DNA from: a virus
Lineage: Duplodnaviria; Heunggongvirae; Uroviricota; Caudoviricetes
Strand: one strand, 5' to 3'
IMG/VR virus record: IMGVR_UViG_2565956611_000003
Location: 1-15,035 of that record
DNA: 15,035 nucleotides
Shown: one piece after another, positions 1 through 15,035 of the stretch
Layout: each line of letters starts with the position of its first letter
How positions within the stretch are numbered: position 1 is the first letter of the stretch
Position numbers and translations under genes: made by a program
Notes under the pieces: model-generated
What the model was told of the DNA's origin: nothing
Database searches by the model: none
Seen by the model: only the letters and a program-made list of their open reading frames with translations

Positions 1-789
1 AGTTTGCTCCTGCCATAACGTGAAGAAGCAATGACCTGGTGGTCCGTGACTTCCCTACGCTGGCATTATCCAGATCAGGTGATACGGGTATTTCTTACTA
101 ATTCCTGTTAGTAATTGATAATAAATAAGTTTTTAAGAATGCATAAATTAAAAGCCTCAAAACTGACCACACAACTGACCACACATTTCGTTGAAGCTCT
201 ACGAACAACGATGAACAATAACAAACAAAAGGGAAATTTGCTGGTGGTTTTGCGTAACCGTTATCATTTTCCGGCTATCCGTCATGAAGCTGGTGGATGA
301 TCTGCGTGGTGATTTCCACCATTCAGAGCAGGGGCGGTCATCATGACCATGCCATAACAAAAACCCCATATTCGTGGGTTTTCTGTGTTGTGGCTATTCT
401 GCCGTTGCCGTGCTGGTGGATATTTCCGGTATGTGGCTCACCATATCGGCATCAGGCCCACCAGCGTGAAGCGTTTTTCATTTTTCGCGGGTATAAAAAA
501 TCGATGGGGCTGGCAGTCCGGAAGACGTCAGGGTACAGAGATTTGACCCGCCCCTCCCTGTGCATGAGCACAATAAGTAACCGAAGGCGGAATTCCGCCC
601 TCGGTGCTCACATATGAGAAACGATATTTCTTACACCGATACCCTTTATTTGGGTATCGCGAGTAAGCCCCAAAATCTGGGTGTTACTCTTACTACCCAA
701 ACTACGGGTAGTTTCATAGTCGAGTTGCAGATCTGCAACTCGCCACCAGTTGCTAAGTGCATTTTTGCACTTTCGGTAATATCAACCAG

Positions 790-1080
790 TTACCGCCGTA
801 AGTGCTCCGGCTTCCTCCACTGGTAAGTATTTTTCGCGCTCTCCCTCCGTTGTTGAGAACGGCGACGGTATGCCAGCAACTCAAGAACTCTGGTTCGTAT
901 GTTGCGCATATCCACGCCGTTAAGCTCAATACCGTCACGGCGCATTACCTCAGCCACCACACGCGCGTAATTTTCGGCTATCACGCTGTCCGGCTGTGTA
1001 GCCTGTTCGTCAGGCTGCTGACTGATTCCGGTAATGCGGCGAATTATTTTTAGTAGATCAGTTTCAGTCATTCTCGTCAT
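790..1080 (-). CDS. Hypothetical small protein (96 aa) immediately downstream of terL
   Basis: ATG at 1080-1078 overlaps the terL stop (ATGA). The first ~75 residues look protein-like; the C-terminal ~20 residues are Arg-rich with rare codons (CGG, AGG), so the true 3' end is uncertain. Confidence 0.4.
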   Translation of the reverse strand: MTRMTETDLLKIIRRITGISQQPDEQATQPDSVIAENYARVVAEVMRRDGIELNGVDMRNIRTRVLELLAYRRRSQQRRESAKNTYQWRKPEHLRR

Positions 1081-2738
1081 ACCCCATCAAATGCCGCAAG
1101 TCGCTCTTTCTGGCTGTCGCTCATATCAAATGCAAATTCCTCATGCTCAGCCTGGAATGTGCCAAACGCCATCAGCGCCGCAACGCTCGGGTCTATCTTA
1201 TTGGATGATTTTTTCTTGTTCGGCTTGATATTGGCGTTCGCGTCACTCTGCATCACAACATTACTCATTGACCAGGCCAGCACCGGATCACCACGATGAA
1301 CAATCACCTTCCGGTTAACAAAAACTTCGAACGATTTCGCCGCCGGACTAAAACGAAGGTACGTTTGCGGGAACGGCTCCACCTCAAATCCCGCTCCCTG
1401 TAGCTGCGTCCTCAGGTGCGTGGCGTTCCATGTATCGAAACCCACCAGCCTGATATTGAAATTCTCTGCATCCGCCATGATGTCATCACGGATACGGTCA
1501 TAATCAATGCAGTCACCCGGTGTTGTGCGTATCCAGCCCGCCTTTGCCCACTGGCGATAGATGGCGCGGTTTTTATTGGCAGGGTTCTGTAGCTGAAATT
1601 CCGGTAGATAGTGACGTGAAACCAGCATAATCTTTTTACCGACCGGAAAGGCATAGCACACGCTGGAAATATCGCTGGTTGATGATAAGTCCAGCCCCGC
1701 ATAGCACTCCTGCCCGTATAAATCCGCCTCAGCGAACGTTCCGGCGCACTCCGCCCATGCACCGTTACCCATCCACGGCGTAGCCCCCTGACACCAGATA
1801 TTGAATCGCTTGGTGAGCATTTCCACCCACTGCGACGGAATACCCCGCGCTTTCTGGATGGTTGAGGCCAGTTTTTCACGATCGACGGAAACATCGATAT
1901 TGGGATTCGCCTTTATCCACATCGCCGGATCGTCAACCTCGCTTTCATCATCCAGCTCGTAAATCAGTACGAACATGGATTCGTTCACCTCTTCACCATC
2001 CAGTATCTGGCAGCAATAGTCGTAGTGTTGTTTACAGGCTGAAACAACGTTGCTCCCCGATGTGGTGATGGCAAATAACAGCCCCTCCGGACGCGCCCCC
2101 ATCCCCAGTTCAAGTGCGGAATAAACCCCGTTGTCTGGGTGCAGGTGATATTCATCCACAATGGCAAGACTCGGGTTTGTCCCCTCAATGGTTGCCGCTT
2201 TTGCTGCCAGTGGCTTTAACAGGCTGTTGGTTTTCGGGTGTATCACCTTGTGCGCCTGAATATTTACCCGCTTTCGTAACGGTCGGGATAAAAGGCACAT
2301 CTGACGCGCATCATCAAACACGATCCGCGCCTGATCACGACTCACGGCGGCGGTGTAAATATCCTGCTGCCCGTTTTCCATAACCAGAAACCAGTTAGCC
2401 AGGATAGCGGCGACCGTGGATTTGGCATTTTTTCGCGGTACTTCAATGAATGCGCTGGTGTATTTGCGCCGTCCGGTGGCCTTAACCTTAAATCCCAGGA
2501 TGCAGGCAAAGGCGAACTGCTGCCACGGCTCAAGTTCAATGGGGCTACCGCGCATTGCGCCTTTTACGTGCGGGCACACCCGGGAAAAGGCAATAAACCG
2601 CTCCACGACCTCCGGATCGAACGTGTAAAGGGAGTTTTCAAGGTCAGAAAAATACCGTTTAACAGCCTGTTTCAGTCGTTTACAGGCCGTAATTTTGCCG
2701 TTTTTTACGCCTTCTGCGTACTCATGCCAGGCGGTCAA
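1077..2738 (-). CDS. terL: Terminase large subunit (Terminase_1 / HK97-like family)
   Basis: 553-aa ORF with a Walker-A-like motif (VPRKNAKST) near the N-terminus and typical TerL size. Start is TTG at 2738 preceded by a strong SD (AGAGGAAGAGGA) and overlaps the terS 3' end by 17 nt. Sits directly after TerS and HNH. Confidence 0.9.
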   Translation of the reverse strand: MTAWHEYAEGVKNGKITACKRLKQAVKRYFSDLENSLYTFDPEVVERFIAFSRVCPHVKGAMRGSPIELEPWQQFAFACILGFKVKATGRRKYTSAFIEVPRKNAKSTVAAILANWFLVMENGQQDIYTAAVSRDQARIVFDDARQMCLLSRPLRKRVNIQAHKVIHPKTNSLLKPLAAKAATIEGTNPSLAIVDEYHLHPDNGVYSALELGMGARPEGLLFAITTSGSNVVSACKQHYDYCCQILDGEEVNESMFVLIYELDDESEVDDPAMWIKANPNIDVSVDREKLASTIQKARGIPSQWVEMLTKRFNIWCQGATPWMGNGAWAECAGTFAEADLYGQECYAGLDLSSTSDISSVCYAFPVGKKIMLVSRHYLPEFQLQNPANKNRAIYRQWAKAGWIRTTPGDCIDYDRIRDDIMADAENFNIRLVGFDTWNATHLRTQLQGAGFEVEPFPQTYLRFSPAAKSFEVFVNRKVIVHRGDPVLAWSMSNVVMQSDANANIKPNKKKSSNKIDPSVAALMAFGTFQAEHEEFAFDMSDSQKERLAAFDGV

Positions 2739-3078
2739 GTTCGTCCTCTTCCTCTGTTTCCGGTGGATTTCTGCGACGGCTTACCGGGTCAAAACCCAGC
2801 AAAGAAGCCATTTTGATCATTATTCTTTCTGCGTCAGCCTTTGCGCTCAGTGCGGGGTTTCTGCTCTCGCTGCCCTGACTGTTAACAATGCTGAACCCGC
2901 GCGTCGCAAGGTCTTCGACGGCTTTGCGGTATATAGAGTAGTTAACGCAATACAGTTCCAGATTGCTCCAGTCGGCGGGGGTAAGGTCTTCCCGCCCGGA
3001 AAGCTGGCGTGATTTTTCCTTCCACTGCCTGACCGCGATTTCATCCAGGTAAGCGGGGGCTTTTGGTGGTCTTGCCAT
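2722..3078 (-). CDS. terS: Terminase small subunit, P27 family
   Basis: Translation from the internal ATG at 3078 (MARPPKAPAYLDEIAVRQW...LELYCVNYSIYRKAVEDL...RNPALSA...GFDPVSRRR) fits the P27-type small terminase pattern. The ORF-track N-terminal extension to 3219 has non-protein-like composition and would cover the putative cos region. Confidence 0.8.
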   Translation of the reverse strand: MARPPKAPAYLDEIAVRQWKEKSRQLSGREDLTPADWSNLELYCVNYSIYRKAVEDLATRGFSIVNSQGSESRNPALSAKADAERIMIKMASLLGFDPVSRRRNPPETEEEDELDRLA

Positions 3079-3129
3079 GTTCTTTTTTCGCCCAATTATT
3101 TTCAAAAAAATTACCGTGCACAAAAATTT

Positions 3130-3189
3130 GAGGGGGCGGTCGGTGTCCGGCAGGGACGGTTTCGTCCTGAAAACCACCCCCACCCCCTC
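3130..3189. other. Candidate cos / packaging recognition region between HNH and terS
   Basis: 288-bp non-coding gap (3079-3366). GAGGGGG (3130-3136) and CCCCCTC (3183-3189) flank a GGACG-GTTT-CGTCC hairpin (3154-3167), with C5 tracts at 3176-3187. HNH-cos-terS-terL is the usual layout of HK97-like cos phages. Confidence 0.35.
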
Positions 3190-3366
3190 TGACGGCCTCA
3201 CCAGCGATTGCGAAAACATTCCATGACCTCGCGGTCACGGTCGGTTAATCGCTTCGCTGTGGTGCGTTTTGTGCGCCCTGTCCTGTTGGCTTTGTGCTCT
3301 GTCTCCTGTGTCTTCCATGTGTCACGCTGCCTTATCAGTCCACGTATCAGCCTGGTTTGCTCCTGT

Positions 3367-3807
3367 TCAGTCATCATCGCCATACATCCAGTTGTTACGG
3401 TGTGCCGCCCGTTCTTCCTGCTCGCGATACATGCCCGCTTTACGGTTTGCTTTCGTGGCTGGATCTTCTCGTGTCGTCTTACGGTTGTGGCACGTCTGGC
3501 ACAATGCCTGGTGATTCCACTCAGGCCAGAAGAGAACATCACCGCCGCCATTGATGGGAATGATGTGATCCACCACAAGAGCTGGCGTATAAATCCCCTT
3601 AGCCAGACAACGCACGCATAACGGGTTTTTGCTCAGGTACAGGGCGCGGTATTTGTCCCACTGTCGGGAATACCCGCGCGCGCGGCGGTGTCCCCGTCTG
3701 GCATCCTCTGCACGCCATGCAGCCCGCCTGTGCTCTTCACACTTGCCGGACTTCACGCGCTTATTACAGCCAGGCTCAGTGCATCGCCTTAATGGTTGCC
3801 ACGGCAT
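3367..3807 (-). CDS. HNH endonuclease (terminase-associated, phage packaging type)
   Basis: 146-aa ORF with CxxC...DHIIPINGGG...N...CQTCHNRKT, a classic HNH zinc-finger nuclease motif. ATG at 3807 overlaps the connector stop by 1 nt. Located immediately upstream of terS. Confidence 0.85.
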   Translation of the reverse strand: MPWQPLRRCTEPGCNKRVKSGKCEEHRRAAWRAEDARRGHRRARGYSRQWDKYRALYLSKNPLCVRCLAKGIYTPALVVDHIIPINGGGDVLFWPEWNHQALCQTCHNRKTTREDPATKANRKAGMYREQEERAAHRNNWMYGDDD

Positions 3808-4109
3808 CAGTACACCCCTACGTCACGATAAACTGACCAGAGCGCAGAAATAGCCATAGGCAGTTCCGAGTGCTCCACTGGTGAAACCGCTTCCCGGTTC
3901 TCGTACAGGAAAGCGATGTACATCAGGCAACCAACACGCATTGCCGGGGTAAATTCCAGCCCGTCTTCAAAACGTTTCCCGATATGCTTCTGGCAGGCTT
4001 CCAGCGCCGCATCGGTATACATTTTCAGAAGTTCGCCTTCACCGGATAAATCATCATCAAGTCGAAGATGTGCCCTGACTTCATCAGGTGTAATTCTGGC
4101 TTCACTCAT
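3807..4109 (-). CDS. Head-tail connector / adaptor protein, gp6-like
   Basis: 101 aa from ATG 4109 (MSEARITPDEVRAHLRLDDD...LLKMYTDAALEACQKHIGKRF...), matching the gp6-like head-tail connector pattern. SD GGGAGA lies in the portal 3' end; 8-nt overlap with the portal stop. The ORF-track GTG start at 4196 would sit deep inside the portal gene. Confidence 0.75.
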   Translation of the reverse strand: MSEARITPDEVRAHLRLDDDLSGEGELLKMYTDAALEACQKHIGKRFEDGLEFTPAMRVGCLMYIAFLYENREAVSPVEHSELPMAISALWSVYRDVGVY

Positions 4110-5316
4110 CTTTTCTCCCTTTAATTTCCACAGTCTGTTTCCATGCCTGGCTGAACTCATCACCACCTTCACGCGGCGGCATACCCTCACGCTCACGGGC
4201 TTCGTTCGGATTCATGATCCCGTTCTTAATCCCTTTCTCATACGTGGCATAACGTTCGGTGGGTGTGGCGCGTAATAAATCGGCTGAATCAAACTCAACC
4301 AGATAACGGGTACCAGGTACGGGAGAAGCCACCAGCAAAGCGGCCTTGATTTGCTGTTCGAAGTTCGCCAGCCACGGGCGCATTGTCATGGTCAGAAACG
4401 CGCGGCTTGCCTCGCTGAAATTGCTGTAGGTGCTGTTGCTGTATTCCTGCAGAAAAATAGGCGATACGTTGAACATGCGGGCGATGTCTTCAATGGAGAA
4501 GCGACGGGAGGCCAGCCATTCCGCATCCTGGTTACTCATTCCCAGTTGCCTGTAATCCATGCCCCCTTCAAGGATTGGCGTTTTTCCGGCATTTTTCGCC
4601 CCCTTGTAGCGTTCCAGAGCATCCAATGCCTGTTTACCTTTCACGCCGTCCAGCCATTCGCCTGACGTGATAATCCCTGCCGCCATCATGCCATCTTTCA
4701 TAATGCTGGCTCCGTGACGCTGTTGAGCAAGGCCAAGCCCCAGCGCCTCACGGCAAATCGTGACGGGGGAACGCCCCAGAAAGCCATCATCCGAGGCATA
4801 GCGGAGATGCAAAACTTCTTCCTGTAAATACGTGCGCACCGTTCCTGTACAGGGTTCGGTGATGGTATAGCGGTATTTGTGTGCGCCTGTGCGTTCCGGT
4901 ACAACACACCCCGGCGCATAAGGATGAAGTGATTTTGGCTGCCCGTCCTGCCCCCACTCAATAACCGCATAGGCGTTACCGTTCAGCAGGCAGTGACGCA
5001 TCATTGTGCGTTTAAACTGGTAAGGTGTCTGGCACGAATTAGGCTGCTCATTCAGCAGAATATCTACTGGGTGACTGTCCAGCCATTCCCGCGCCTCCCT
5101 GCCCTTGTCATTACGTACCAGATACAGATAACACGGCATCGTGGCCACCGCCTCAGCGATGACAGAAACCGCATTCATCACTGCAGGCAATGATTCAGCC
5201 GTCCCGGCAGAAACATATTCTCCGGATCCGGTATTCGGTACGCCGGACAGCGCCAGAAAATCATCAATGGACAGGTTACGCTGCTCGCTTTTTTTACGAC
5301 TAAAAGGCCACCACAT
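4102..5316 (-). CDS. Portal protein, HK97 family
   Basis: 405 aa from ATG 5316 (MWWPFSRKKSEQRNLSIDDFLAL...), 1 nt after the protease stop. Size and position between protease and connector fit a portal. The ORF-track TTG start at 5406 would overlap the protease gene by about 90 nt. Confidence 0.85.
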   Translation of the reverse strand: MWWPFSRKKSEQRNLSIDDFLALSGVPNTGSGEYVSAGTAESLPAVMNAVSVIAEAVATMPCYLYLVRNDKGREAREWLDSHPVDILLNEQPNSCQTPYQFKRTMMRHCLLNGNAYAVIEWGQDGQPKSLHPYAPGCVVPERTGAHKYRYTITEPCTGTVRTYLQEEVLHLRYASDDGFLGRSPVTICREALGLGLAQQRHGASIMKDGMMAAGIITSGEWLDGVKGKQALDALERYKGAKNAGKTPILEGGMDYRQLGMSNQDAEWLASRRFSIEDIARMFNVSPIFLQEYSNSTYSNFSEASRAFLTMTMRPWLANFEQQIKAALLVASPVPGTRYLVEFDSADLLRATPTERYATYEKGIKNGIMNPNEAREREGMPPREGGDEFSQAWKQTVEIKGRKDE

Positions 5317-5317
5317 A

Positions 5318-5878
5318 TCACAACCCCGCCAGCTCAGACCAGCGATGACGATTATTTCCTGTCGGACGTAATTCAGGGTGCTGTGCAAACAACGAACGGT
5401 GGGCAATCTCCACGCCAGATTCTGGATAAGCAGGCATCGACGTTATTGTGATTTCACGGAGTTCAGCGGCGGTTACGGTACGCAGATACGGTTTTTGCGC
5501 GATACTCCACTCCTCGCATAATGCGCGAAAACCAAAGCTCATTCCTGTAATGTCGCCACGCTCCACCAGCGTAAGCACATCTTTTCCAAGCTGGGTATCC
5601 GGCGGTGTCAGTTCAAAACGTAACCCGGTGTTATCCTCAGTCAGTACCAGAGTGCCGGATTTGGTGCGCCCCAGCAGTTGGGTATAGTCATGCTCATACA
5701 GGCAGCGCACATCATTACCCGTCGCCAGATAGTCAGCAAAAGCCCCCGGCGTGAACTGTTCGCGGAATTCGTCCCAGATAATTTCTGAAAGGCTGTTCCA
5801 GCGAACGGCATACCCCACCAGCTTTTTATTGCTGGCGGTCAGTTCAGATGTGCGGATTTCAAAATCGGTGTTTTTCAT
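5318..5878 (-). CDS. Prohead maturation protease, HK97 family (S78-type)
   Basis: 186 aa with VGYAVRWN...H...ITGMSFGF motifs typical of HK97 prohead proteases. ATG at 5878 with GGAG 8 nt upstream. Confidence 0.85.
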   Translation of the reverse strand: MKNTDFEIRTSELTASNKKLVGYAVRWNSLSEIIWDEFREQFTPGAFADYLATGNDVRCLYEHDYTQLLGRTKSGTLVLTEDNTGLRFELTPPDTQLGKDVLTLVERGDITGMSFGFRALCEEWSIAQKPYLRTVTAAELREITITSMPAYPESGVEIAHRSLFAQHPELRPTGNNRHRWSELAGL

Positions 5879-5897
5879 CGGTGTACTCCATAAAGCT

Positions 5898-5920
5898 GAA
5901 AAAGGAGGCCGCAGCCTCCT
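5898..5920 (-). terminator. Intra-operon stem-loop plus U-run (attenuator-like) between capsid and protease genes
   Basis: On the minus-strand transcript, 7-bp stem AGGAGGC/GCCTCCT with 4-nt loop, followed by UUUUU, in the 54-nt gap after the capsid stop (5933) and before the protease start (5878). Confidence 0.5.
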
Positions 5921-5932
5921 CCTTACTCATGA

Positions 5933-7102
5933 CTAGCCAGCTTTCATTTCCAGAATTTTGATGGCGTTTGAATCCACCACACCACCGCCCAGATATTTAT
6001 CCGTGTGGACCTTGTAGAATCCGGGTTCAGTAATGTTGTCCGGTCGGGTGCGAATCCCTGTTACATGATCAACGATGAAATAACCACGACTGAAATCGCC
6101 AACCGCTAGCGGTGCTTTTCCTGCGCCGATGTCCGGCATGGACTCCAGGCAGTAAACAGGACGACCAAGCAACATATCCGGCGCACCTTCTTTAAGGCTG
6201 TCGCGCCAGATATAATCGCCGTTCTCATTTTTCAGCTTCTGTAGTGTCCCTGCCGTGCCCGAGTTCATCACCCAGACGGCATTTTTGCGGTATTTCGCTT
6301 TCAGCTTGTAGAGAATGTCGATCAGTTCGTCCGCTGTAATGGCGGTTCCACTTGCCGCTACTATTTTTTCAATGGTGCCAAAAGCGCGGGTTTTGTCACT
6401 GGTCGCCGCACGGGTGTAAGCCATGAAGCCTTTCGGCTTGCCGTTACCGTCGCCATTAACAAAATCATCCTCTTCGGTGCTGGCGAACGTGTCGGCAATT
6501 TCGGAGGATAACCAGCCCAGAATATCCACCTCTGAAAAATCCAGGATTTCCTGCGTGGTTTTCGGGTAGGCGTAGATCGGATTCAACTTGATGGTTACGC
6601 GTTCAATTTTCGGGGTGTTGGTTTCACTGCGTGCGCTGCCTTCTGTGCCTCGTCCTACAGTTGCGCCGCCAGTGGAAACCAGTTTCTGAAACTCATTTGA
6701 TTTTGCGGTCTTCACGGTCGCGATCACGCGCATAACACTGTCATCCTGTAGCTGGCGCATGACTTCGCGATCAAGCTCAGGAATTACGGTATATCCGCCA
6801 TCCCTGCCGCTGTCAGTGCTGGTGGACAGTGATCGCACATCTCCGGTTACGATGTAGTTACGCAATTCATCAGATGATAATTTCTGGATGCCCGTTCCTG
6901 GCTTGCTGCGTTCTTCATCAGCCACAGACTCGAGGCGGGAAATTTCTGTGTCGAGGGCATCAGCTTTTGCACGCAGTTCATCAAACTGTTTGCCTTCTTC
7001 AGCGTTCAGACTACGGTTTTCACTGTCGGCTTTTTCCAGCAGGGATCGCATCTGGTTTTTCAGGGCGTTTTTTTGCTGGCGGAGTTCGATTAATTTCTTC
7101 AT
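5933..7102 (-). CDS. Major capsid protein, HK97 family
   Basis: 389 aa with an N-terminal coiled-coil delta-like region (MKKLIELRQQKNALKNQMRSLLEKA...) and a body containing DFVNGDGNGKPKGF, typical of the HK97 fold. First gene of the head operon. Confidence 0.9.
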   Translation of the reverse strand: MKKLIELRQQKNALKNQMRSLLEKADSENRSLNAEEGKQFDELRAKADALDTEISRLESVADEERSKPGTGIQKLSSDELRNYIVTGDVRSLSTSTDSGRDGGYTVIPELDREVMRQLQDDSVMRVIATVKTAKSNEFQKLVSTGGATVGRGTEGSARSETNTPKIERVTIKLNPIYAYPKTTQEILDFSEVDILGWLSSEIADTFASTEEDDFVNGDGNGKPKGFMAYTRAATSDKTRAFGTIEKIVAASGTAITADELIDILYKLKAKYRKNAVWVMNSGTAGTLQKLKNENGDYIWRDSLKEGAPDMLLGRPVYCLESMPDIGAGKAPLAVGDFSRGYFIVDHVTGIRTRPDNITEPGFYKVHTDKYLGGGVVDSNAIKILEMKAG

Positions 7103-7388
7103 GAAGGTTTTCTCGTATTGGTTAAGATTCAGGACGTGAAACCAACACGGGGGGAGCGCCGCCCGACACTCTCGGCATCTCGCAGATCAACCCGGCATCG
7201 CGCAGGGGGTCAGGCGGCATTGTGGCGGCTCACGTCTGAGTGCCACGCTCCAACATATACATAAAAATCAGTATGTAAACACCTGTCAGTCAGACCGAAC
7301 AACCACGAAAGAACACGAACAAATAATTTACAAAAGAAGTAAACCATGGCCTATTATTGCTGTCTCTGACTACAACAAAGGACGCATC

Positions 7389-7895
7389 ATGAATTTAAGC
7401 GCAATGGTATATCCTGATACTTTCATAATTAATGGCGAATCATTCAGAGGTAAAAGAAACGCAAAAGAAAACAAGGTATTAATTCCATATACAAATGAAC
7501 CGGAAGTAACTATTGGTCAACACATTATCCAGCGTGTCGGTAAAAACGAGATAAATCTAAAAATTATAGATATGAAGTTGCTTCCCAATGGAACCCGCAG
7601 ACAGGGAACCAATCATCCAAATATGTTGACTCTCTATATTGAAAATATCACGGGAAATGAACATATGACGCCAACTAAAAGTAATACATTTAACATTGGT
7701 TCAATTAGTGGTGATCAAGTGCAGATAGGTGAGCATAACCATATGCTGGTAAACATCAGCATCACTGAACTGGTTGAAAAAGTCGCTAAATCGGGGGATG
7801 TACAAGCCAAATCAGTATTAAAGCAGTTACTGGAAAACAGTACCGTTGCCAGCATTGTTGGGGCTGGCGCAAGTGCCCTAATAGGCTTACTGTAA
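7389..7895 (+). CDS. Hypothetical protein (168 aa), AT-rich cargo gene with hydrophobic C-terminal segment
   Basis: ATG 7389 with AAGGA 7 nt upstream. Visibly AT-rich compared with flanking genes. The C-terminus (STVASIVGAGASALIGLL) is hydrophobic and Gly/Ala-rich. Stand-alone plus-strand gene followed by a strong terminator. No family recognised. Confidence 0.6.
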   Translation: MNLSAMVYPDTFIINGESFRGKRNAKENKVLIPYTNEPEVTIGQHIIQRVGKNEINLKIIDMKLLPNGTRRQGTNHPNMLTLYIENITGNEHMTPTKSNTFNIGSISGDQVQIGEHNHMLVNISITELVEKVAKSGDVQAKSVLKQLLENSTVASIVGAGASALIGLL

Positions 7896-7932
7896 AAAAA
7901 TGGCCTGGATTTTACCAGGCCTTTATTATTTT
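7896..7932. terminator. Bidirectional rho-independent terminator
   Basis: GGCCTGG (7902-7908), loop ATTTTA, CCAGGCC (7915-7921), flanked by A8 upstream and TTTATTATTTT downstream, so U-runs on both strands. Sits between the convergent 168-aa gene and the minus-strand replication-module operon. Confidence 0.7.
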
Positions 7933-8227
7933 ACCGTTTCACGGGATCTCGCATTCTGCGCCTTATTTTCCACAGATATTCGATCATCGCTTCCACCTGC
8001 TCACGGTTGGTTGCGAAAATTTCCCCGGTCAGTGAGCTACGCAGAAAATCATGATGATCCACAACAAACAACGCATCGGAAGAAAGCAGACGGCGATATT
8101 TTTTTGCTGTCATGGTTTCCAGATCATCAAAATCATGAAACTTTTTATGTTGCTGGACTTCTTCAAATGTCACTGGAATGTCCCCTCTGTTGTCGCTAAA
8201 ACGGTATGTTGTCCCCGTACGGATCAT
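7931..8227 (-). CDS. Hypothetical protein (98 aa)
   Basis: Protein-like composition; last gene of the minus operon running from the iteron region; overlaps the SSB 3' end. The start is ambiguous (ATG 8227 or ATG 8113) and no strong SD is seen. Confidence 0.45.
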   Translation of the reverse strand: MIRTGTTYRFSDNRGDIPVTFEEVQQHKKFHDFDDLETMTAKKYRRLLSSDALFVVDHHDFLRSSLTGEIFATNREQVEAMIEYLWKIRRRMRDPVKR

Positions 8228-8621
8228 CGTGCTGACCCGTCTGCTGTTTTGCCCTGTTCAGTGCGTCAGTGGCCTGCCCCTGCTGGCCTTTTTTGCCGCC
8301 CGGTCGCGCTGTTCGCGCACTGATCACGCTGTCTGCGATAACCTGCCAGCCCTGCCGCGTTTCGCCGTTCTGGCCTGTCCACTGGCTTACCTGCATGTTA
8401 CCCGCCACGCTCACCAGTTCGCCTTTGTGGTGTTTTGCCAGTGCGTCGGCCTGTCTGCCAAACGCCAGGACGGATAACCACATCATCGCCGTTCCGTCAT
8501 CTGCCTGGCTGCACGGAAGGGGGACCGCCATACTAGCCATCGTCATTTGTGTACCCTTGCTGGTGGTCTTTAACTGCGGGTCAGCCACCAGCCGCCCGTA
8601 AGCCGCTATCTGTGCTGTCAT
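8196..8621 (-). CDS. ssb: Single-stranded DNA-binding protein (SSB-like, OB-fold) with acidic C-terminal tip
   Basis: 141 aa. The C-terminus ends ...DDPYGDNIPF, resembling the conserved SSB tail (DDDIPF). The N-terminal region aligns by eye to the SSB OB-fold (IAAYGRLVADPQL...; WLSVLAFGRQADALAKHHKGELVSVAGNMQVSQWTGQNGETRQGWQV). ATGA overlap with the upstream ORF. Confidence 0.7.
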   Translation of the reverse strand: MTAQIAAYGRLVADPQLKTTSKGTQMTMASMAVPLPCSQADDGTAMMWLSVLAFGRQADALAKHHKGELVSVAGNMQVSQWTGQNGETRQGWQVIADSVISARTARPGGKKGQQGQATDALNRAKQQTGQHDDPYGDNIPF

Positions 8622-8863
8622 GCTGTCTGCTCTCCGGTTTTAACGTTGATGGTTGTCACCTGTTCCGCTTCGGCAATCTCCCGTTCTGTCAGCGTGGCAA
8701 AGTTTGCAGCTGCCGTTGTCATGAATGCGCTAATCAGTTCGGGATGTGCTTTCGCATATCCTTCCCCGGCGTTGCGGTCGATGATTTTTATCGACACCCT
8801 TAACCAGTGTTCCGTCAAATCAAGGGCGTGCGATTGTGATTTTTTTGTGTGCTTCGCTGTCAT
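8618..8863 (-). CDS. Hypothetical protein (81 aa), first gene of the operon leaving the iteron region
   Basis: ATG at 8863; translationally coupled to ssb (ATGA). No family recognised. Confidence 0.45.
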   Translation of the reverse strand: MTAKHTKKSQSHALDLTEHWLRVSIKIIDRNAGEGYAKAHPELISAFMTTAAANFATLTEREIAEAEQVTTINVKTGEQTA

Positions 8864-8908
8864 AGGCTTTATCTCACAGCAGTAAATTAAAATTTTTGCG
8901 TTTTAACC

Positions 8909-9136
8909 CTTCACCTGTTCACCTTTTGATATTTTCCATTTAAATTCATACTGTTAAGGGGTGAACAGTTTCACAAAAACTATTCACCAACTGTTCACCA
9001 CTGTTCACCCTTGAAGCTCAATAAACAACCAAAAAGGTGAACAGTGAATAGTTTGGTGAACAGTTCATAAATAACTGTTCACCCTATAATATACTGATAT
9101 AAAAGATAATTATGACAGGCTGAACAGTGGTGAACA
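8909..9136. repeat. Iteron array / candidate origin of replication (P4-type TGTTCACC octamers plus AT-rich segment)
   Basis: Eight perfect octamers: TGTTCACC at 8916, 8992, 9002, 9076 and the reverse complement GGTGAACA at 8960, 9036, 9055, 9129. Degenerate copies near 8909, 8981, 9044, 9119. AT-rich stretch with TATAAT at 9085-9118. Lies directly 3' of the primase/helicase gene. Confidence 0.8.
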
Positions 9137-9150
9137 GTTATTCAATAAGT

Positions 9151-10968
9151 TTAATTTTTGCTATCGTCATTAGTGACCGATACACATGATGGCATCCAGT
9201 CTTCTGATTCCTCCGTCAGTGTCACGTTTGAACGAAAACCGTGCTTCGTTTTCCGTTTCATATACTCCCTGCCATATTCCGCCATTGCCCCCGGCATATC
9301 TTTACCGAAGCGCGTCAGTGTTACAGGTTTACCAAACCCATGTGCCCTCATATAAGCCAGATAGGCATGATAGAGATACCTGCGTGGGCTGAATGGCACA
9401 ATTTCAGCATTACCCACTAACAGGCCATCACACATTACCGACGCCATGAGATAGCCGCAGAAGTCCACCAGCGAATCCCCCTCTCGCTTTATCGCCAGTG
9501 CTTCTTCAGATTTCTGCTGCTCATATAACAGGCGTCTGGCTTCGTCCTGGTCAGCAAACCGTGTAAGCAGATGGCGAATCACTACCGCCAGCTCACCTTC
9601 TATTTTTTCCGCCAGCATTGGATCGCGTTCGTTCTCCGGTACAACTTCCGAAAAATTGAATATCACCCGACGACGTGAGATCCCCCCGCTGCGGTCACTG
9701 AATGACATGGCGTTATTGTTAACCGCCAGCACTACTGCCGGAATACGCGTTGAGTAGGGGGCTTTGTGTTTCGGGTCAATTGCCACCTTGTCACCGCCTG
9801 TAATAGCCTTAATCCCTGCCCCATCACCAGCGTAGCGGGTCATATCCGGCATGATAATCAGCGAAAAGCCAACCACTAACGCGCGTTCCCTTGCATCTTC
9901 CAGCGCCTTCATGCTTGCCGATACTGTGTTGGCCTTACCCGCCAGCATGGTGCAAATCTCCGCCATCACGCTTTTACCACTTCCCCCTGGACCTGTTACC
10001 TCAATGAATAACTGCCAGTCGTACCGGTTCGCCAGCACCATGAATAATGCAGCCAGTACGCGATCCGCCTTGCGGTCATTCTCAGCCACCGAACGGCGTA
10101 ACCACTTCCAGAAATTCGGCGCATGTGTTGCCAGCGTTTCCCCCTCTGCTGGTGGGCTGAAAGGTAATTCACTGGCAATTAACAACCAGTCGTTTTTGTT
10201 ATGCTCCCGAAAATTACCTGTTCTGGTATCAAATACCCCGTTACTGAATCCAATCAGGTTACGGGCTGTATTCCCCATTACAGGCAAACTTAACTTCATG
10301 GTATCGACCGCCGATTTAATGGCGTTCTGCGAATAGCTGATCTCCGCATCAATGAAAATCTGTGCCATAGCTCGCTGTAATTCTTTATCCTGTACTGGCT
10401 CCCATACAACGCCGTTGTAATGGTGAACAGTGTCAGAGTCAGCATGAATCGCCAGTTCACCGCCATAATGTGCCAGGAGAACTTCGCCGCGTTGACTTGC
10501 TCCCATCTGGTTAAGCGCCAGTGATGAAGCGTTATCGTCTTTTACCCGCTCTTTTTTCTTTACAGGCAGTTCAACTACCTTTTTCTTTTCCGCCTGCTCT
10601 GCCCGTTCACGTTCCAGATATTCGCGCCAGTTCTCCCGTTTCTGGCTGTGCATTCCTTCAGGGTAATAATCAGCATCCCTGACACCTGCCACTGCCAGTT
10701 TCTGCCCGATGGTATTAACAAGCCCCGGACGCAATAACCCCGCCTGATAGAGACGCACGCGATAGCGTCCGTCCGATACGATTTGCAGGTTGTCCAGTTC
10801 GGCAAGTTGTTGCTCTCCAAGCCAGACAGGTGGCACGTTATCGCCAGCCAGTCGCCCGTCCTGTTCCTGCCACTGTTTCGCATGTGCCCACGCATCACTA
10901 CCCGCAAAAATGATGACTTCCGTCATTTTGTCACGCGGCTGGTGTTTTAAATTTGGCGCTTTTTTCAT
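9151..10968 (-). CDS. Replication initiator, primase/helicase type (P4 alpha-like / D5-like SF3 helicase with Walker A)
   Basis: About 605 aa from ATG 10968 (SD GGAGAGAG upstream; ATGA overlap with the preceding ORF). Walker A motif TGPGGSGKS mid-protein; large multi-domain protein next to the iterons. The ORF-track start at 10983 is GTG. Confidence 0.8.
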   Translation of the reverse strand: MKKAPNLKHQPRDKMTEVIIFAGSDAWAHAKQWQEQDGRLAGDNVPPVWLGEQQLAELDNLQIVSDGRYRVRLYQAGLLRPGLVNTIGQKLAVAGVRDADYYPEGMHSQKRENWREYLERERAEQAEKKKVVELPVKKKERVKDDNASSLALNQMGASQRGEVLLAHYGGELAIHADSDTVHHYNGVVWEPVQDKELQRAMAQIFIDAEISYSQNAIKSAVDTMKLSLPVMGNTARNLIGFSNGVFDTRTGNFREHNKNDWLLIASELPFSPPAEGETLATHAPNFWKWLRRSVAENDRKADRVLAALFMVLANRYDWQLFIEVTGPGGSGKSVMAEICTMLAGKANTVSASMKALEDARERALVVGFSLIIMPDMTRYAGDGAGIKAITGGDKVAIDPKHKAPYSTRIPAVVLAVNNNAMSFSDRSGGISRRRVIFNFSEVVPENERDPMLAEKIEGELAVVIRHLLTRFADQDEARRLLYEQQKSEEALAIKREGDSLVDFCGYLMASVMCDGLLVGNAEIVPFSPRRYLYHAYLAYMRAHGFGKPVTLTRFGKDMPGAMAEYGREYMKRKTKHGFRSNVTLTEESEDWMPSCVSVTNDDSKN

Positions 10969-11264
10969 TTCTGCTCTCTCCACGCGGCAATCATGTTTTT
11001 TAGTTCCTGTAGTTTTTTATCAACATCCATACATGACACATGGTTATTTCTGGAAAGCGGGATTTCCCGACTGAATCTGCTAATAAAGATCTCCACGTTC
11101 AGCGAACTAAGAAATGAATAGCCATCACGGATAAAATACACACGGTCAAACATCAGTTCTTTTACCGTTACTCTGTTACCGTTCTTATCCAGATAAATAG
11201 CGCCGGGGATAATTTGGGGGTGTGCATAACCGCTGGCAGTCAAGCCAGATAAATACGTTCTCAT
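10965..11264 (-). CDS. Hypothetical protein (99 aa)
   Basis: ATG at 11264; stop overlaps the primase start (ATGA). Moderately AT-rich. No family recognised. Confidence 0.5.
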   Translation of the reverse strand: MRTYLSGLTASGYAHPQIIPGAIYLDKNGNRVTVKELMFDRVYFIRDGYSFLSSLNVEIFISRFSREIPLSRNNHVSCMDVDKKLQELKNMIAAWREQK

Positions 11265-11270
11265 GATTAT

Positions 11271-11591
11271 TTATCCCCGATTTGAATCAGTATTCGCTTT
11301 CTTTATAGCATTTAATGCATCTGTGGCATTTTCAATGGTGCACCGTAACGAAATATCAAAATGTCCAAGCATTGCCAGTAACAAACCGATATTACCCATA
11401 TCAATGCGCATGGCCTTTTCGTCATAGTCCTCATTTTCTGACGCATGCCACATCAGGCTACCAATTGACGCAACAGCCATTGATATATTGTCAGTAGCCC
11501 CATCCGCAGCGGAATAAACCTTTTTAGCAATATCATGCTCACAGTTAAAATGCGGATTAATCAGGTACTGGTAATTTGACATATCAGGCAT
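11271..11591 (-). CDS. Hypothetical protein (106 aa)
   Basis: ATG at 11591 preceded by a G7 run acting as SD; 6-nt gap to the next ORF. No family recognised. Confidence 0.5.
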   Translation of the reverse strand: MPDMSNYQYLINPHFNCEHDIAKKVYSAADGATDNISMAVASIGSLMWHASENEDYDEKAMRIDMGNIGLLLAMLGHFDISLRCTIENATDALNAIKKANTDSNRG

Positions 11592-11787
11592 GGCACCCCC
11601 CCTGACGAATACGGGCGGCGAATACCATCACGCAGCCAGCCGGGGATTGCTGGCGTGCTTCCTGTTCGCTGCTGGCCTCAATGGTAATCACGCGCGGTTG
11701 TGCCGTGCTCAGGGCGATAAAACGCCAGATGTATTTATTCAGGTTGTACGAGTCCCGCCCTTGCGGGTGTATGGTATGATTTCTCAT
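11584..11787 (-). CDS. Hypothetical small protein (67 aa from the internal ATG; ORF-track version starts at a TTG at 11877)
   Basis: ATG at 11787 with GAGG SD. First gene after the leftward promoter. The 3' end contains the G7 tract and overlaps the next gene by 8 nt; it may be the N-terminal part of a frameshifted longer gene. Confidence 0.4.
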   Translation of the reverse strand: MRNHTIHPQGRDSYNLNKYIWRFIALSTAQPRVITIEASSEQEARQQSPAGCVMVFAARIRQGGCHA

Positions 11788-11885
11788 AGCTGCCTCGATA
11801 CTCTCGTTATCGTTGGTGGTTAGACGCCCCGTATGTGTTTCCGGCACTGCGGGGCGTTGCTCTTTGTATTTCAACAATCCTTTCG

Positions 11886-11963
11886 GTGTGTTTCATGTTA
11901 TGAGCGCATGAAACACACGTCAAGGCTTTTTGTATTTCTTTTTTTGTGTATACTGAAACACAC
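11886..11963. promoter_or_regulatory. Divergent promoter/operator region with three TGAAACACAC sites
   Basis: Perfect 12-bp inverted repeat GTGTGTTTCATG (11886-11897) / CATGAAACACAC (11907-11918) overlaps a leftward TTGACG-17-TAACAT promoter (-35 at 11923-11918, -10 at 11900-11895, minus strand). A third TGAAACACAC (11954-11963) overlaps a rightward TATACT -10 (11949-11954) upstream of the 11985 gene. Confidence 0.5.
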
Positions 11964-11984
11964 CGATGATTAGGAGTTTCAGAA

Positions 11985-12290
11985 ATGGCAACGGCTAACA
12001 AAAACGCAAAATCACAACTGACAACTGTCAGAGTCCCACTAGATGTTATGCAAGGGATGGAATCCGTTAAGCTGGACGGCGAAAGCAATGCCGGATTTAT
12101 CGTAACCGCCATGCGCGGAGAAATAGCCCGCCGCCAAGCAGAAGGCAGCGGAGAAAATCCCCTTGTGTCGTCACTGGATGCCCTGGCTAAGGTCGAACAA
12201 ATCGGCATCAAAGCAGCGGAAGAAATCGGGCAGCTTGTCACCGTTGCACGCGAAGAACTCCAGCGTCGCAAGACCAAAGAACCAGAGTAA
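11985..12290 (+). CDS. Putative small DNA-binding regulator (101 aa; possible ribbon-helix-helix type)
   Basis: ATG 11985 with AGGAG 8 nt upstream; typical enterobacterial codon usage. N-terminal QLTTVRVPLDVMQGM resembles a beta-strand-then-helix RHH start; this is a weak inference. Convergent with alpA. Confidence 0.55.
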   Translation: MATANKNAKSQLTTVRVPLDVMQGMESVKLDGESNAGFIVTAMRGEIARRQAEGSGENPLVSSLDALAKVEQIGIKAAEEIGQLVTVAREELQRRKTKEPE

Positions 12291-12332
12291 TCACCATCAG
12301 CGCCGTGGTGTAAGGTATTACGGCGCATTGCT

Positions 12333-12521
12333 ATGCAGGACAACACAATGACCGATAAAGAATTGACCAAAACATTATCACCGGCACGGAAAAGACGGCG
12401 CAGAAAGATAGAGCATGAATCAGAAAGATTCGCGCCATGTGCTTTTGCTCTTGAGAAATTCCTTAAAGAGCACAGGAAAAAGCTCTCGTTGCAAACCTTG
12501 GAACGAACCAAATCTGACTGA
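12333..12521 (+). CDS. Hypothetical basic small protein (62 aa), doubtful
   Basis: Follows the 101-aa gene and precedes the 12590 terminator; contains an RKRRRRK stretch. Weak SD and several rare codons (AGA, AGG, CGG, ATA). Confidence 0.3.
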   Translation: MQDNTMTDKELTKTLSPARKRRRRKIEHESERFAPCAFALEKFLKEHRKKLSLQTLERTKSD

Positions 12522-12589
12522 TCACATTGCCCACCAGCCGCAAATGTGGCATTGTTGGTGATGCGTTCAAGTTTAGTGTGTATCCATTG

Positions 12590-12618
12590 GCGACCGCCCC
12601 CGGTCGTCTTTGTTTTAT
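12590..12618 (+). terminator. Rho-independent terminator for the plus-strand operon
   Basis: Stem CGACCG (12591-12596), loop CCCC, CGGTCG (12601-12606), followed by TCTTTGTTTT. No U-run on the opposite strand. Confidence 0.6.
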
Positions 12619-12635
12619 ATGTCATATGCTCCCCT

Positions 12636-12860
12636 TTACGCTGCCTTACCTGAATTAACGCGGTCACGGCTTTGCACCCAGTCCATAACTTCGGAAAGCA
12701 ACCAGCCTACAGAACGCCCCCCAAGATTACGGCGAGACGGAAAGCCCCCTTTCTTCTCCAGTTCGTAGCGTGTAGTACGGCTGACGCCTGTTAACTTACG
12801 ACATTCATCCTCACGAATTACGCGATCTGTTAGTGATTGAAATTGTGTATTTTGATTCAT
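12636..12860 (-). CDS. alpA: AlpA-family prophage transcriptional regulator (small HTH excisionase-like activator)
   Basis: 74 aa (MNQNTQFQSLTDRVIREDECRKLTGVSRTTRYELEKKGGFPSRRNLGGRSVGWLLSEVMDWVQ...) matches the AlpA/CP4-57 regulator pattern. ATG at 12860 with GAGGG SD. Position near the integrase is typical. Confidence 0.85.
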   Translation of the reverse strand: MNQNTQFQSLTDRVIREDECRKLTGVSRTTRYELEKKGGFPSRRNLGGRSVGWLLSEVMDWVQSRDRVNSGKAA

Positions 12861-12892
12861 AAAAACACCCTCGAACGTAACCGAACAAGGGC

Positions 12893-12920
12893 ATCTTATT
12901 TACCATAGCAGTTGGTGCAA
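12893..12920 (-). promoter_or_regulatory. Candidate sigma70 promoter for alpA
   Basis: Minus-strand TTGCAC (12920-12915), 16-bp spacer, TAAGAT (12898-12893), about 30 nt upstream of the alpA ATG. Confidence 0.35.
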
Positions 12921-12963
12921 TATTGGAAAAATAAACTTTATTCTAATTTATCGTTCTCCATGA

Positions 12964-13818
12964 TTAATTTTCATTAGATAACATTTTTCTTATTTTTTCT
13001 AAAGAATCGCTGCGCATTATTTTTTCTAAGAAGGGTTTTACAGTCTGAGCAATAGCAAAGGTGTCCTTTTCACCATCAGGATACAAAGATACGGCAAGCA
13101 CCCCTAATGAAATTTTTCTATCTGTAGACAACTCCCAAGATAATAAGTCAATTAATGGGATTATCTTATAATCAATAATTTTACGTCGTATGCTCTCCCA
13201 ACTTCCTGCAATTGGTTTGTCTGGCTCAACAATTGAAAGTTCACTACGCCATTTTGGTAATAGTTTTGTAAACGCTTCAATCAACTCATCATCTCTGTTA
13301 TGTAGTAAGTCAACAGAAACAAGCATATTATCTAATGTATCAGAAAGGAGATTCACTGGTTCACGCATCACAGCCCAAAACATCCCATTATCTTCTGATA
13401 TTAAACTTCCAACCATCTCATTATCTATGATGATTGGTTTATCCTTCCAATATCCTCTTTCCGCAGTCAGTTTATTAATCATTGATATATCAAACCTTGT
13501 TACAGGTTTAATTCCATCATCATAACTTAGCTCAATTAACTTCGGTTGCACTTTATGGTCATATTCTTTTTGTTTATCACAAAACCAATCGTCTTCTTTC
13601 AGCTCTCCAAATGGATCCCCGTAATTATTATGCAACGGGTATTCAGCACCAAACATAAATCCATATTCAGGCATCTCAGAATGTTTCATCGTTAAATCAT
13701 CTTGTCGCCAATATAATTGGCGAAATAGATCTTTATCCGACAAGTTTTCTAGGCAATCATATTTGCCTAAATCAAATGACTTTGGTAAATCTTTTTTACT
13801 ATTTACTTTTTTCGTCAT
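12964..13818 (-). CDS. Hypothetical protein (284 aa), AT-rich cargo gene between integrase and alpA
   Basis: ATG at 13818 overlaps the integrase stop (ATGA) with GAGGG SD. Markedly AT-rich compared with int and alpA. Acidic, soluble-looking protein; no family or catalytic motif recognised. Confidence 0.7.
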   Translation of the reverse strand: MTKKVNSKKDLPKSFDLGKYDCLENLSDKDLFRQLYWRQDDLTMKHSEMPEYGFMFGAEYPLHNNYGDPFGELKEDDWFCDKQKEYDHKVQPKLIELSYDDGIKPVTRFDISMINKLTAERGYWKDKPIIIDNEMVGSLISEDNGMFWAVMREPVNLLSDTLDNMLVSVDLLHNRDDELIEAFTKLLPKWRSELSIVEPDKPIAGSWESIRRKIIDYKIIPLIDLLSWELSTDRKISLGVLAVSLYPDGEKDTFAIAQTVKPFLEKIMRSDSLEKIRKMLSNEN

Positions 13819-15035
13819 TGTATCCCTCTCAATATCACAATATTTTCATTATATCCTGCAATCATATCAAGACGCTCAACCCATAGATTCAGTGCGTCCC
13901 GTTTCGCCTGCAAATAGCGTGAATGGTTATAGGTTTTTTGCTGACCTGGCATCTGATGCGCTGTGATGTGCTCCACGATATGCGGATCGACACCTAAATC
14001 ATTCAGCATAGTTGTAAACGTGTGTCGGAAATCATGCAGCGTCCAGTGTTCCTGCTTAAGCCGCTTATGCGCATTTCGTCCATATTGCGCCACCGTGGTA
14101 TCTTTTTTCAGTTCGCCGAGTAATAACCCAGTGTGTGCGTTTTGCTCCACCAGCTTCTGAATGAACGGCAAAATACCATCAGGAATAGGTCGGAATATTG
14201 TTACCTTCGTTTTGCTGTGCTCTTTTGGCACTGTCCACAACATTTCTTTCAGATCCCATTCTTTGATCTCTGAAAGTCTGATCTCTGCCGTTCTGCACCC
14301 GAACACAATTAACAAGCGCATTAACGCACTGTAATAGGGAGCGAACACATCACCATCAATAGCGCGTAGAATTTCTTTTAGTTCGCTGTTGCTGTGCACT
14401 CTCTCGCGGATTTCTGCTCTCTTACCCACATCAGTAACGATCAAATCGTCCAGGGCGTTGCTAAACGCGTAGCGCCGCCTGCGGCAAAACTTTAGCGCCT
14501 GTTTGCATGTCTGCATGACATGGCCCGCTGCTACTGGTGCTTTTTTTCGTACGCGGTCAAAACATGCGATCCACTGCCTTGTATCACACTTATCAAGGGG
14601 AATTGCCCCAATATGGCAAATGATGTGCTTATCCATACGCTGCACCAGCTTTATGTAATCTTTGCGGTTATCCTTCGCGTATTCCTCCAGCCAGTAGTTA
14701 ATCGCTTCCTTCACCGTAACGGGTTTTAGTGCTTCCTGTACTGTGGCGCACAACTCATAACGGGGGTTTTTACCCTCAGCCAGCCATGCCCGGCACAGTG
14801 TGCGTTTTTCCCTTGCGGCTTTCAGCGACAATTCAGGGTAAGCCCCCAGCTTTAACCGCTCTGCGGCAACCTCACGGCCTCCCGTTCGGTACCGGAAATA
14901 CCAGGTTAATTTGCCGCCCTTTGAGTGTTTAATCTCCAGCCCGCCCCCGTCGGAGTAAAAACGCTCTTTTTCTGCCTGGACAGCCGCCAATTTTTTTAAC
15001 GTCGAATCGCTCAGTTTGTTTAGTGCTTTTCCCAC
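13815..15035 (-). CDS. int: Tyrosine integrase, P4 family (5' end at or just beyond the window edge)
   Basis: 406 aa read to the window edge. C-terminal catalytic region with LHDFRHTF (HxxR) and a downstream Tyr (KTYNHSRYL). The N-terminal region (LSDSTLKKL...LGAYPELSLKAAREKR) resembles P4-type integrase arm-binding domains. The first codon in the window is GTG. Confidence 0.9.
   Translation of the reverse strand: MGKALNKLSDSTLKKLAAVQAEKERFYSDGGGLEIKHSKGGKLTWYFRYRTGGREVAAERLKLGAYPELSLKAAREKRTLCRAWLAEGKNPRYELCATVQEALKPVTVKEAINYWLEEYAKDNRKDYIKLVQRMDKHIICHIGAIPLDKCDTRQWIACFDRVRKKAPVAAGHVMQTCKQALKFCRRRRYAFSNALDDLIVTDVGKRAEIRERVHSNSELKEILRAIDGDVFAPYYSALMRLLIVFGCRTAEIRLSEIKEWDLKEMLWTVPKEHSKTKVTIFRPIPDGILPFIQKLVEQNAHTGLLLGELKKDTTVAQYGRNAHKRLKQEHWTLHDFRHTFTTMLNDLGVDPHIVEHITAHQMPGQQKTYNHSRYLQAKRDALNLWVERLDMIAGYNENIVILRGIQ

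Follow-up and report, generated by a model that had tools for sequence, protein, structure and literature searches.

What is a tight cluster of palindromes doing in non-coding DNA beyond a packaging operon? The question is raised by the first kilobase of a 15,035-bp stretch of Caudoviricetes DNA (IMG/VR record IMGVR_UViG_2565956611_000003, positions 1 to 15,035; the whole stretch is called the window here). An initial annotation had placed five palindromic elements between positions 559 and 742 and had suggested that they could be protein recognition or recombination sites, an element boundary, or a structured RNA. We find that the palindromes are part of a conserved, hairpin-packed non-coding stretch in a family of Escherichia coli phage satellites, located between the last gene of the late operon, a member of the phrog_1561 family, and a helper-phage-type cos site (Table 1). 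The window itself is a capsid-forming phage-inducible chromosomal island (cf-PICI) of E. coli inserted in the thiM riboswitch; its gene order matches that described for cf-PICIs (10.1101/2022.09.08.507074).

A repeat search recovered all five of the palindromes first described, at the same positions, together with a larger imperfect palindrome at 640-710 (33-nt arms, 73% complementary), and the palindrome region is, as had been proposed, non-coding and beyond the packaging genes. Further hairpins were found at 559-572, 615-633, 661-690, 755-772 and 775-796, and when 559-800 is folded single-stranded, each of its strands yields a row of about nine hairpins. The fold energy of the plus strand is -96 kcal/mol, compared with -55.6 +/- 4.7 for shuffled sequences (z -8.7), and that of the minus strand is -103.6 kcal/mol (z -9.4); the energy of the native sequence was not reached by any of 200 dinucleotide shuffles. 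Among 323 GC-corrected 184-nt segments taken along the full 15 kb, 559-742 ranks first in structure (z -4.1).

The stretch belongs to satellites. Of 5,426 complete E. coli genomes, 704 (13%) contain positions 540-790, at a median of one place per genome, and all seven chromosomal contexts inspected are satellites, with differing integrases, insertion sites and packaging modules. They include the O157 cf-PICI beside ydgV (L004), satellites embedded in prophage late genes (L003 and L005), a thiM-site island with capsid, decoration protein and TerS (L009), and a thiM-site island with a protease-capsid fusion and DUF1441 (L008). Nothing in 559-800 matches 50,697 phage records at E <= 1e-5. A plasmid collection yielded one mis-filed chromosome, one partial match and one circularised satellite; the last (L213; NZ_CP148328.1), a circular 10,790-bp record deposited as a plasmid, represents an entire excised satellite with int, AlpA, primase, protease-capsid fusion, DUF1441 and phrog_1561 genes, in which the order is phrog_1561, hairpin unit, conserved block, nested palindrome, cos, attP and int. 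The initial annotation had named one finding that would detach the palindromes from the island, namely that they are copies of a ubiquitous chromosomal repeat such as the repetitive extragenic palindromic (REP) element. With usually one copy per genome, in the minority of genomes given above, and a satellite at every inspected locus, they are not, and a REP element is ruled out by copy number and distribution. The three thiM-site islands (window 98-1004, L008 and L009) have the same att-proximal 0.7-1 kb, made up of arm sites, cos, the cluster and the 3´ part of phrog_1561, and carry three different packaging modules (the cf-PICI set; capsid, decoration protein and TerS; protease-capsid fusion and DUF1441), which points to module exchange by recombination.

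Part of the cluster, the satellite-specific block at 634-744, is nearly invariant. In it, two TACCC-N7-GGGTA palindromes are mirrored around a box that resembles a site for integration host factor (IHF), with their centres ~54 bp apart, and are followed by the perfect 22-bp palindrome. The box, AAAATCTGGGTGTTA, is enclosed by the middle hairpin and looks like a degenerate copy of the IHF box in the hairpin unit described below. Over 73 aligned columns the block is 98.6% identical, compared with 85-91% for the adjacent gene in the same lineages, and its fold gives z values of -7.8 and -8.0. Since its loops are conserved as well as its stems, the block is probably a protein recognition platform. 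Its borders are sharp: in one locus it is interrupted by an IS-like end, and in another a different palindrome replaces the left part; in L012 one copy is cut by an apparent IS903-like inverted repeat. A 9-bp direct repeat, GTAGTTTCC, is present in almost every other copy and missing from that of the window (at 706-718); copies with the repeat permit two mutually exclusive hairpins. Forty-eight of the 51 copies found by pattern lie on the 3´ side of a phrog_1561 gene that faces them at a distance of 49-789 nt, and two are cut by contig ends. An nhmmer search for diverged copies over 212 fetched loci returned only the block's own reverse-strand self-matches. The 22-bp palindrome also recurs, at 22 of 23 positions, in KilA-N-domain genes of SfII (L214 1501-1523, SfII_46), Stx2a phages and others, where it encodes ..SELQICNS..; given E ~0.08 and unrelated flanks, this match is probably due to chance.

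A hairpin followed by an IHF box lies between the block and phrog_1561. The box, TATCAACCAGTTA, is an exact match to the IHF consensus WATCAANNNNTTR, the sole one in the window, and overlaps the stop codon of the upstream gene; with the A/T tract upstream of it, it is a predicted IHF site. In related satellites the unit, a 5-6-bp hairpin with an A/T loop and then TTTCG-AAAATATCAnCnnGTTA, is repeated up to about six times. Across 42 non-redundant 450-nt trailers, exact IHF matches number 48 in this orientation and 1 in the other, with 0.6 expected. The stems of the units have 24 different sequences and retain complementarity; these paralogous hairpins covary, which fits a single-stranded DNA or an RNA of either strand. 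With the low fold z values, this supports selection on the hairpins.

At the other end of the cluster, the nested palindrome carries a terminator-like signal. That none of the palindromes has a clear U-run, and that they are therefore not classical terminators, had been the initial assessment; this holds for the plus strand and fails for the minus strand, on which the operon lies. There, the inner hairpin (605-580) has 11 pairs, 8 of them G-C, and a 4-nt loop, is followed by TACTTATTGT, and was flagged as terminator-like by a terminator scan. Among the palindromes, a G+C-rich hairpin with a U tract was found only here, and not at 637-659, 692-712 or 721-742. The nested palindrome folds with -30.9 kcal/mol (z -5.8), accompanies the helper-type cos module in 20 of the 21 loci that carry this module, and was not found in phage cos regions. 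Between cos and att there is a second terminator-like hairpin, which carries UUUUUGUU on the minus strand (383-358) and whose plus-strand version the scan flags at 365-378. In a relative with 48% protein identity, four hairpin units and a Chi site are followed by a clean hairpin and TTTTT terminator in the operon direction.

The initial annotation located the palindromes correctly and overlooked the phage-type cos that adjoins them. Positions 476-558 match the genome ends of SfV, SfI, SfII, SfIV and ST64B and the annotated cos-site of phiP27, with identities of 82-96% (95% for phage vB_EcoM-720R4, 92-96% for SfII and SfV, with 93% for SfII and with 96% for SfV over 47 bp, and 82% for phiP27). 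In the alignment, GGGGCTGGCA at 506-515 corresponds to the 10-nt cos of phiP27; the record of SfI stops at 506, and that of SfV starts at 522. The cluster itself is not a phage-type cos, as 476-558 alone matches phage ends. These phages are arranged HNH, cos, TerS, which puts the cluster on the HNH (last-packaged) side of cosN. The helper-type site is common to the three thiM-site islands irrespective of their packaging module. A second, diverged site at ~3120-3190 was identified by a short BLAST match to the phiP27 cos, by alignment, and by its identical sequence and position in the O157 cf-PICI, and we take that as the satellite's own cos; the O157 island has this site only, without the SfV-like cos. 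By sequence, then, the cf-PICI in the window carries two cos sites of HK97/P27 type. Given the diverged site and its like placement in the O157 island, the cluster was rejected as the cf-PICI's own cos. A lambda-type cos was rejected as well: no match to the lambda cosN GGGCGGCGACCT with <=3 mismatches was found near the cluster, and cos1 and cos2 of EcCICFT073 (from that paper's supplement) have no evident likeness to it. Palindromes of the types GTGGTGATTTCCACCAT and GGTCATCATGACC occur at 305-350, on the far side of cos, and their motif family, TGGTCATTATGACCA, recurs in other satellites' trailers. Some satellites (L017 ~1063-1370; L012 and L101) carry a third cos variant, then three copies of GCGGGTTA, an A+T-rich stretch with an IHF consensus and three copies of TAACCCGC, an arrangement that looks cosB- or ori-like; in these three, two copies of the conserved block bracket the cos variant.

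The distribution of Chi sites (GCTGGTGG) bears on the helper-type cos. The window has 15, compared with 0.56 expected from shuffles, and 8 of the 11 to the right of cosN are in the opposite orientation to the three on its left; further examples on the minus strand are at 1442, 4329 and 5563. The orientation is biased as if to protect cos-made DNA ends from RecBCD, and this placement supports 506-515 as a real DNA end.

Throughout the satellites examined, including those with unrelated packaging modules, the cluster has phrog_1561 as its neighbour. The C-terminus of its product is invariant (RRR...YQWKKPERLRR; motif Y-x-W-K/R-K-P-E-x-L-R-R preceded by RRR), and its basic character, which resembles that of arginine-rich RNA-binding motifs, suggests nucleic-acid binding. 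The protein has no Pfam family and no PDB sequence match, and its AlphaFold2 (AF2) model, which is helical and of low confidence (predicted local distance difference test score, pLDDT, 69), gave no match in a fold search. The family comprises 39 cluster representatives among 1.8 billion, and a protein-based scan of the genome collection gave a single locus. A cf-PICI paper describes a 'hypothetical gene 1792' whose deletion severely reduces transfer and which may be this gene.

Table 1. Positions of the features discussed, in window coordinates
Feature	Position	Strand	Basis or remarks
att core ATACGGGTATTTCT, 14 bp	82-95		Actual left end of the satellite, within the thiM thiamine pyrophosphate (TPP) riboswitch
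Two tandem ACTGACCACAC repeats	162-184	+	In a ~70-bp segment repeated at the island's other end
Three Chi sites	240, 289, 412 (span 240-419)	+	Orientation recognised by RecBCD that enters at the cos-cut end and travels left
Second terminator-like hairpin, AAAACCC..GGGGTTTTTGTT	358-383	-	Between cos and att; fold
Helper-phage-type cos (cos2)	476-558	-	Directly left of the cluster
cosN equivalent, GGGGCTGGCA	506-515, possibly to 522		Within cos2
Nested palindrome	565-610	-	Inner hairpin 580-605 and U-rich tail are intrinsic-terminator-like on the operon strand
Outer arms of nested palindrome, TGAGCAC/GTGCTCA	565-571 with 604-610		Repeat search
Inner palindrome	13-nt arms 580-592 and 593-605		92% complementary; includes perfect GGCGGAATTCCGCC
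Short A/U-rich hairpin, GAGAAAC..UUCUUAC	615-633		Minimum-energy folds, both strands
Satellite-specific conserved block, 110 bp	634-744		Hairpin 637-659, middle hairpin 661-690, hairpin 692-712, palindrome 721-742
Hairpin CGATACCC-N7-GGGTATCG	637-659		Repeat search
Hairpin ACTACCC-N7-GGGTAGT	692-712		Repeat search
Perfect 22-bp palindrome	721-742		Repeat search
Chi-like octamer CCACCAGT	743-750	-	Exact Chi complement CCACCAGC here in most relatives
Hairpin and IHF-box unit	755-792	+	Hairpin AAGTGCATTTTTGCACTT, then TATCAACCAGTTA (780-792)
Last late-operon gene, 93 aa, phrog_1561 family	790-1071	-	PHROG match E 2.6e-52; basic C-terminal tail
Satellite's own diverged HK97/P27-type cos (cos1), putative	~3120-3190	-	Gap between HNH and small open reading frame (ORF) and TerS

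We read the cluster, tentatively, as the structured 3´ trailer of the late operon. The operon mRNA would end with the region between phrog_1561 and the helper-type cos; the nested palindrome would halt RNA polymerase ahead of cos, attP and int, and the hairpins upstream of it would fold in the transcript and give the RNA a nuclease-resistant 3´ end. IHF would act in the DNA, bending its consensus box or boxes and so forming a compact nucleoprotein segment beside the packaging site. The block would probably also serve as a specific recognition platform for a protein, for which the product of the co-inherited phrog_1561 is the obvious candidate.

Several observations weigh against this reading. 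After the inner hairpin the U-tract is interrupted (UUACUUAUUGU), and the T-run of the hairpin units follows the stem on the plus strand, not on the operon strand. IHF binding is predicted from a match to the consensus. The block is missing from 25 of 53 protein-anchored loci, so that a satellite can do without it. It varies little, and its covariation does not exceed the shuffle control: 19 of 33 pairs are invariant and one shows a double change, a score reached by 114 of 500 shuffles. Wobble-type changes in the block and units favour neither strand, such that the folded species could be an RNA of either strand or single-stranded DNA. Near-invariant loops, finally, are not needed by a trailer that terminates and stabilises, and the block is thus not fully explained. 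Because the trailer reading under-explains this near-invariance, some probability goes to accounts based on packaging and on a regulatory RNA.

In the packaging account, which we consider unlikely, the block and IHF box or boxes form a cosB-like specificity site, bound by the phrog_1561 product alone or with TerS, with an IHF bend joining the palindromes and terminase directed to the satellite cos; gpNu1 of lambda uses R3-I1-R2 in a comparable manner. The invariance of the block in loops as well as stems would be expected of such a site, as would the mirror symmetry of its palindromes around an IHF-like box, the position of the block between phrog_1561 and cos in satellites that depend on a helper terminase, and the bracketing of the extra cos variant by two block copies in L017, L012 and L101. 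PICI-specific cosB recognition also has a precedent in the literature, in the recognition of PICI cosB by Rpp-TerS (PMC6739421). The geometry is nevertheless wrong, with the block on the HNH side of cosN and phage cosB on the TerS side, and the O157 cf-PICI retains the block 2.6 kb from its sole cos. Moreover, satellites that carry the block have packaging modules of three unrelated kinds, roughly half of the trailers with phrog_1561 are without it, and no similarity of phrog_1561 to Rpp, to TerS or to a solved structure was detected. A regulatory RNA, either a small RNA from the 3´ untranslated region of the operon or hairpins bound by the arginine-rich tail of phrog_1561 as an analogue of N and nut, strikes us as improbable. 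Four or five stable hairpins are tightly packed here, nucleotide conservation exceeds that of the neighbouring gene, the stems of the units vary and stay complementary, as a single-stranded form would need, and the basic tail of the protein has the likeness noted above. Against an RNA stand the absence of significant covariation and of a strand bias in wobble changes, a negative promoter scan with no conserved promoter ahead of the block in three left contexts, and the orientation-locked IHF consensus, which points to a function in double-stranded DNA. An Rfam 15 search of 559-800 returned no family at the gathering threshold and none even at E = 10, which leaves the cluster without a known RNA family. 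A broader idea, which we also consider unlikely, is that the block and the hairpin/IHF arrays are a hitherto unrecognised cis element peculiar to enterobacterial phage satellites and read by the invariant phrog_1561 tail and IHF, acting either as a cosB-like packaging switch for helper or satellite terminases or as an N/nut-like RNA device that governs read-through where the late operon ends.

The boundary and recombination functions that the initial annotation had considered fare poorly once the ends of the island are known. Aligning both junctions with the empty K-12 thiM-rcnR site placed the att core at 82-95; the 14-bp core is present at the left junction, at the right junction (outside the window, in L001) and in the empty site. 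The cluster lies ~470 bp inside the element and so is not its boundary. That it is a recombination site, a boundary or a REP-like repeat appears very improbable. The hairpins CGATACCC-N7-GGGTATCG and ACTACCC-N7-GGGTAGT do have inverted arms and a 7-bp spacer, with the look of a tyrosine-recombinase core, GATAC..GGGTAT occurs in the att core too, and the 10-mer TATTTCTTAC is common to 625-634 and 89-98. This 10-mer, however, is missing from most homologues, att maps elsewhere, and satellites that differ in integrase and insertion site carry an identical block; the att mapping and this identity largely refute the recombination alternative. We give as little credence to a small plus-strand gene, the 70-aa ORF at 614-826 that runs through the block. 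Two of the three left contexts have an in-frame ATG, the 9-bp indel preserves the frame, and several changes in the 22-bp palindrome are synonymous in it, but the third context is without a start codon and one copy is frameshifted. Variable columns fall at codon positions 3, 1 and 2 in the numbers 17, 16 and 10, with no third-position excess, and the predicted protein has no Pfam match and N- and C-terminal parts that are unrelated between contexts.

Other features of the island frame the cluster. Over its first 1,100 bases the window has 100% identity with E. coli SMS-3-5 and with 14 further strains listed. In the annotated record (RefSeq) the window begins just upstream of thiM, and the island genes are int, a helix-turn-helix (HTH) regulator, an Icd-like gene, DUF4222, primase, SSB, major capsid, protease, portal, connector, HNH, a small ORF, TerS (P27 family), TerL and a 93-aa hypothetical protein, nearly all on the minus strand. 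The TPP riboswitch is matched at 34-116 on the minus strand with 35 bits, compared with a gathering cut-off of 54, and the satellite has inserted within its aptamer. In place of the native 5´ half and promoter of the riboswitch the island brings a hairpin of its own, UUACUAA-CAGGA-AUUAGUAA, and regulation of thiMD may be altered in lysogens. The tandem ACTGACCACAC repeats, which have a counterpart segment at the opposite island end (L001 ~33075-33100), are probably integrase arm-type sites on both attP arms. Eight of nine copies of the P4-type iteron TGTTCACC (as GGTGAACAGT or ACTGTTCACC) fall in A+T-rich DNA at 8916-9136, just downstream of the primase gene, and none within 559-800. The iteron cluster is a likely replication origin and would tie the replicon to the P4 alpha type; given its location, the palindrome cluster was rejected as a replication origin or cis-replication region (crr).

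Virulence and defence genes travel between enterobacteria on PICI and cf-PICI satellites, and the way in which these are packaged determines what mobilises them. A cf-PICI with two cos sites, the second abutted by the cluster, offers concrete coordinates for packaging specificity. The block and the orientation-locked hairpin/IHF arrays are an entry to little-explored satellite biology and may give the first functional clue to the phrog_1561 family; interest in them would rise if the block proved to be a specific recognition element. Were the cluster only a terminator trailer, it would be ordinary, yet useful for annotating satellite ends and the neighbouring cargo hotspot. One PICI/cf-PICI paper describes the region after the packaging module as variable and expected to hold immune cargo. 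In the PICI and cf-PICI literature searched, the palindrome region is undescribed, and sequence-based literature searches were empty; the cf-PICI reports (bioRxiv 10.1101/2022.09.08.507074 and 10.1101/2025.02.11.637232) neither map nor describe the cos site and non-coding region. The palindrome region thus apparently has not been described before.

Among known systems, the layout recalls the bacterial interspersed mosaic element BIME-1, or RIP (repetitive IHF-binding palindrome), in which REP palindromes flank an IHF site at the 3´ ends of E. coli operons. Both have extragenic palindromes and an IHF box after the last gene, and both keep hairpin potential while the sequence varies. The cluster differs in that it is not dispersed over the chromosome, occurring once per genome and, in the inspected loci, in satellites; its stems are 5-6 bp, compared with REP units of ~35 nt, and the 110-bp block has no BIME counterpart. 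No resemblance to the REP sequence was apparent. The likeness is thus one of layout only and not of family membership. As an intrinsic terminator, the inner palindrome has on the minus strand the expected 11-bp G+C-rich stem, 4-nt loop and U-rich tail; it departs from type in its interrupted U-tract and its position inside an outer 7-bp stem, and the other four palindromes are without an operon-strand U-tract.

The accessory sites of lambdoid cos (cosQ, I2 and the R3-I1-R2 of cosB) and the cosB recognised by Rpp-TerS in EcCICFT073 (PMC6739421, PMC6092414) are likewise non-coding DNA beside cosN, at the PICI end opposite int, with an IHF-type box between mirrored repeats and satellite-specific sequence beside a helper-type cosN. 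The cosN here is nonetheless of the HK97/SfV/P27 type, not the lambda type, and the block lies on the HNH side of it and, in the O157 cf-PICI, is present far from cos. By sequence, phrog_1561 is not an Rpp homologue: it has no PDB match, despite the reported crystal structures of RppC and RppC-TerS (PMC6739421). In overall organisation the island is like cf-PICIs such as EcCIEDL933, in which capsid, protease, portal, connector, HNH, TerS and TerL are followed by a variable region, and the O157 cf-PICI examined (L004) has the same block. The island in the window differs from L004 in having the second, helper-like cos directly beside the cluster.

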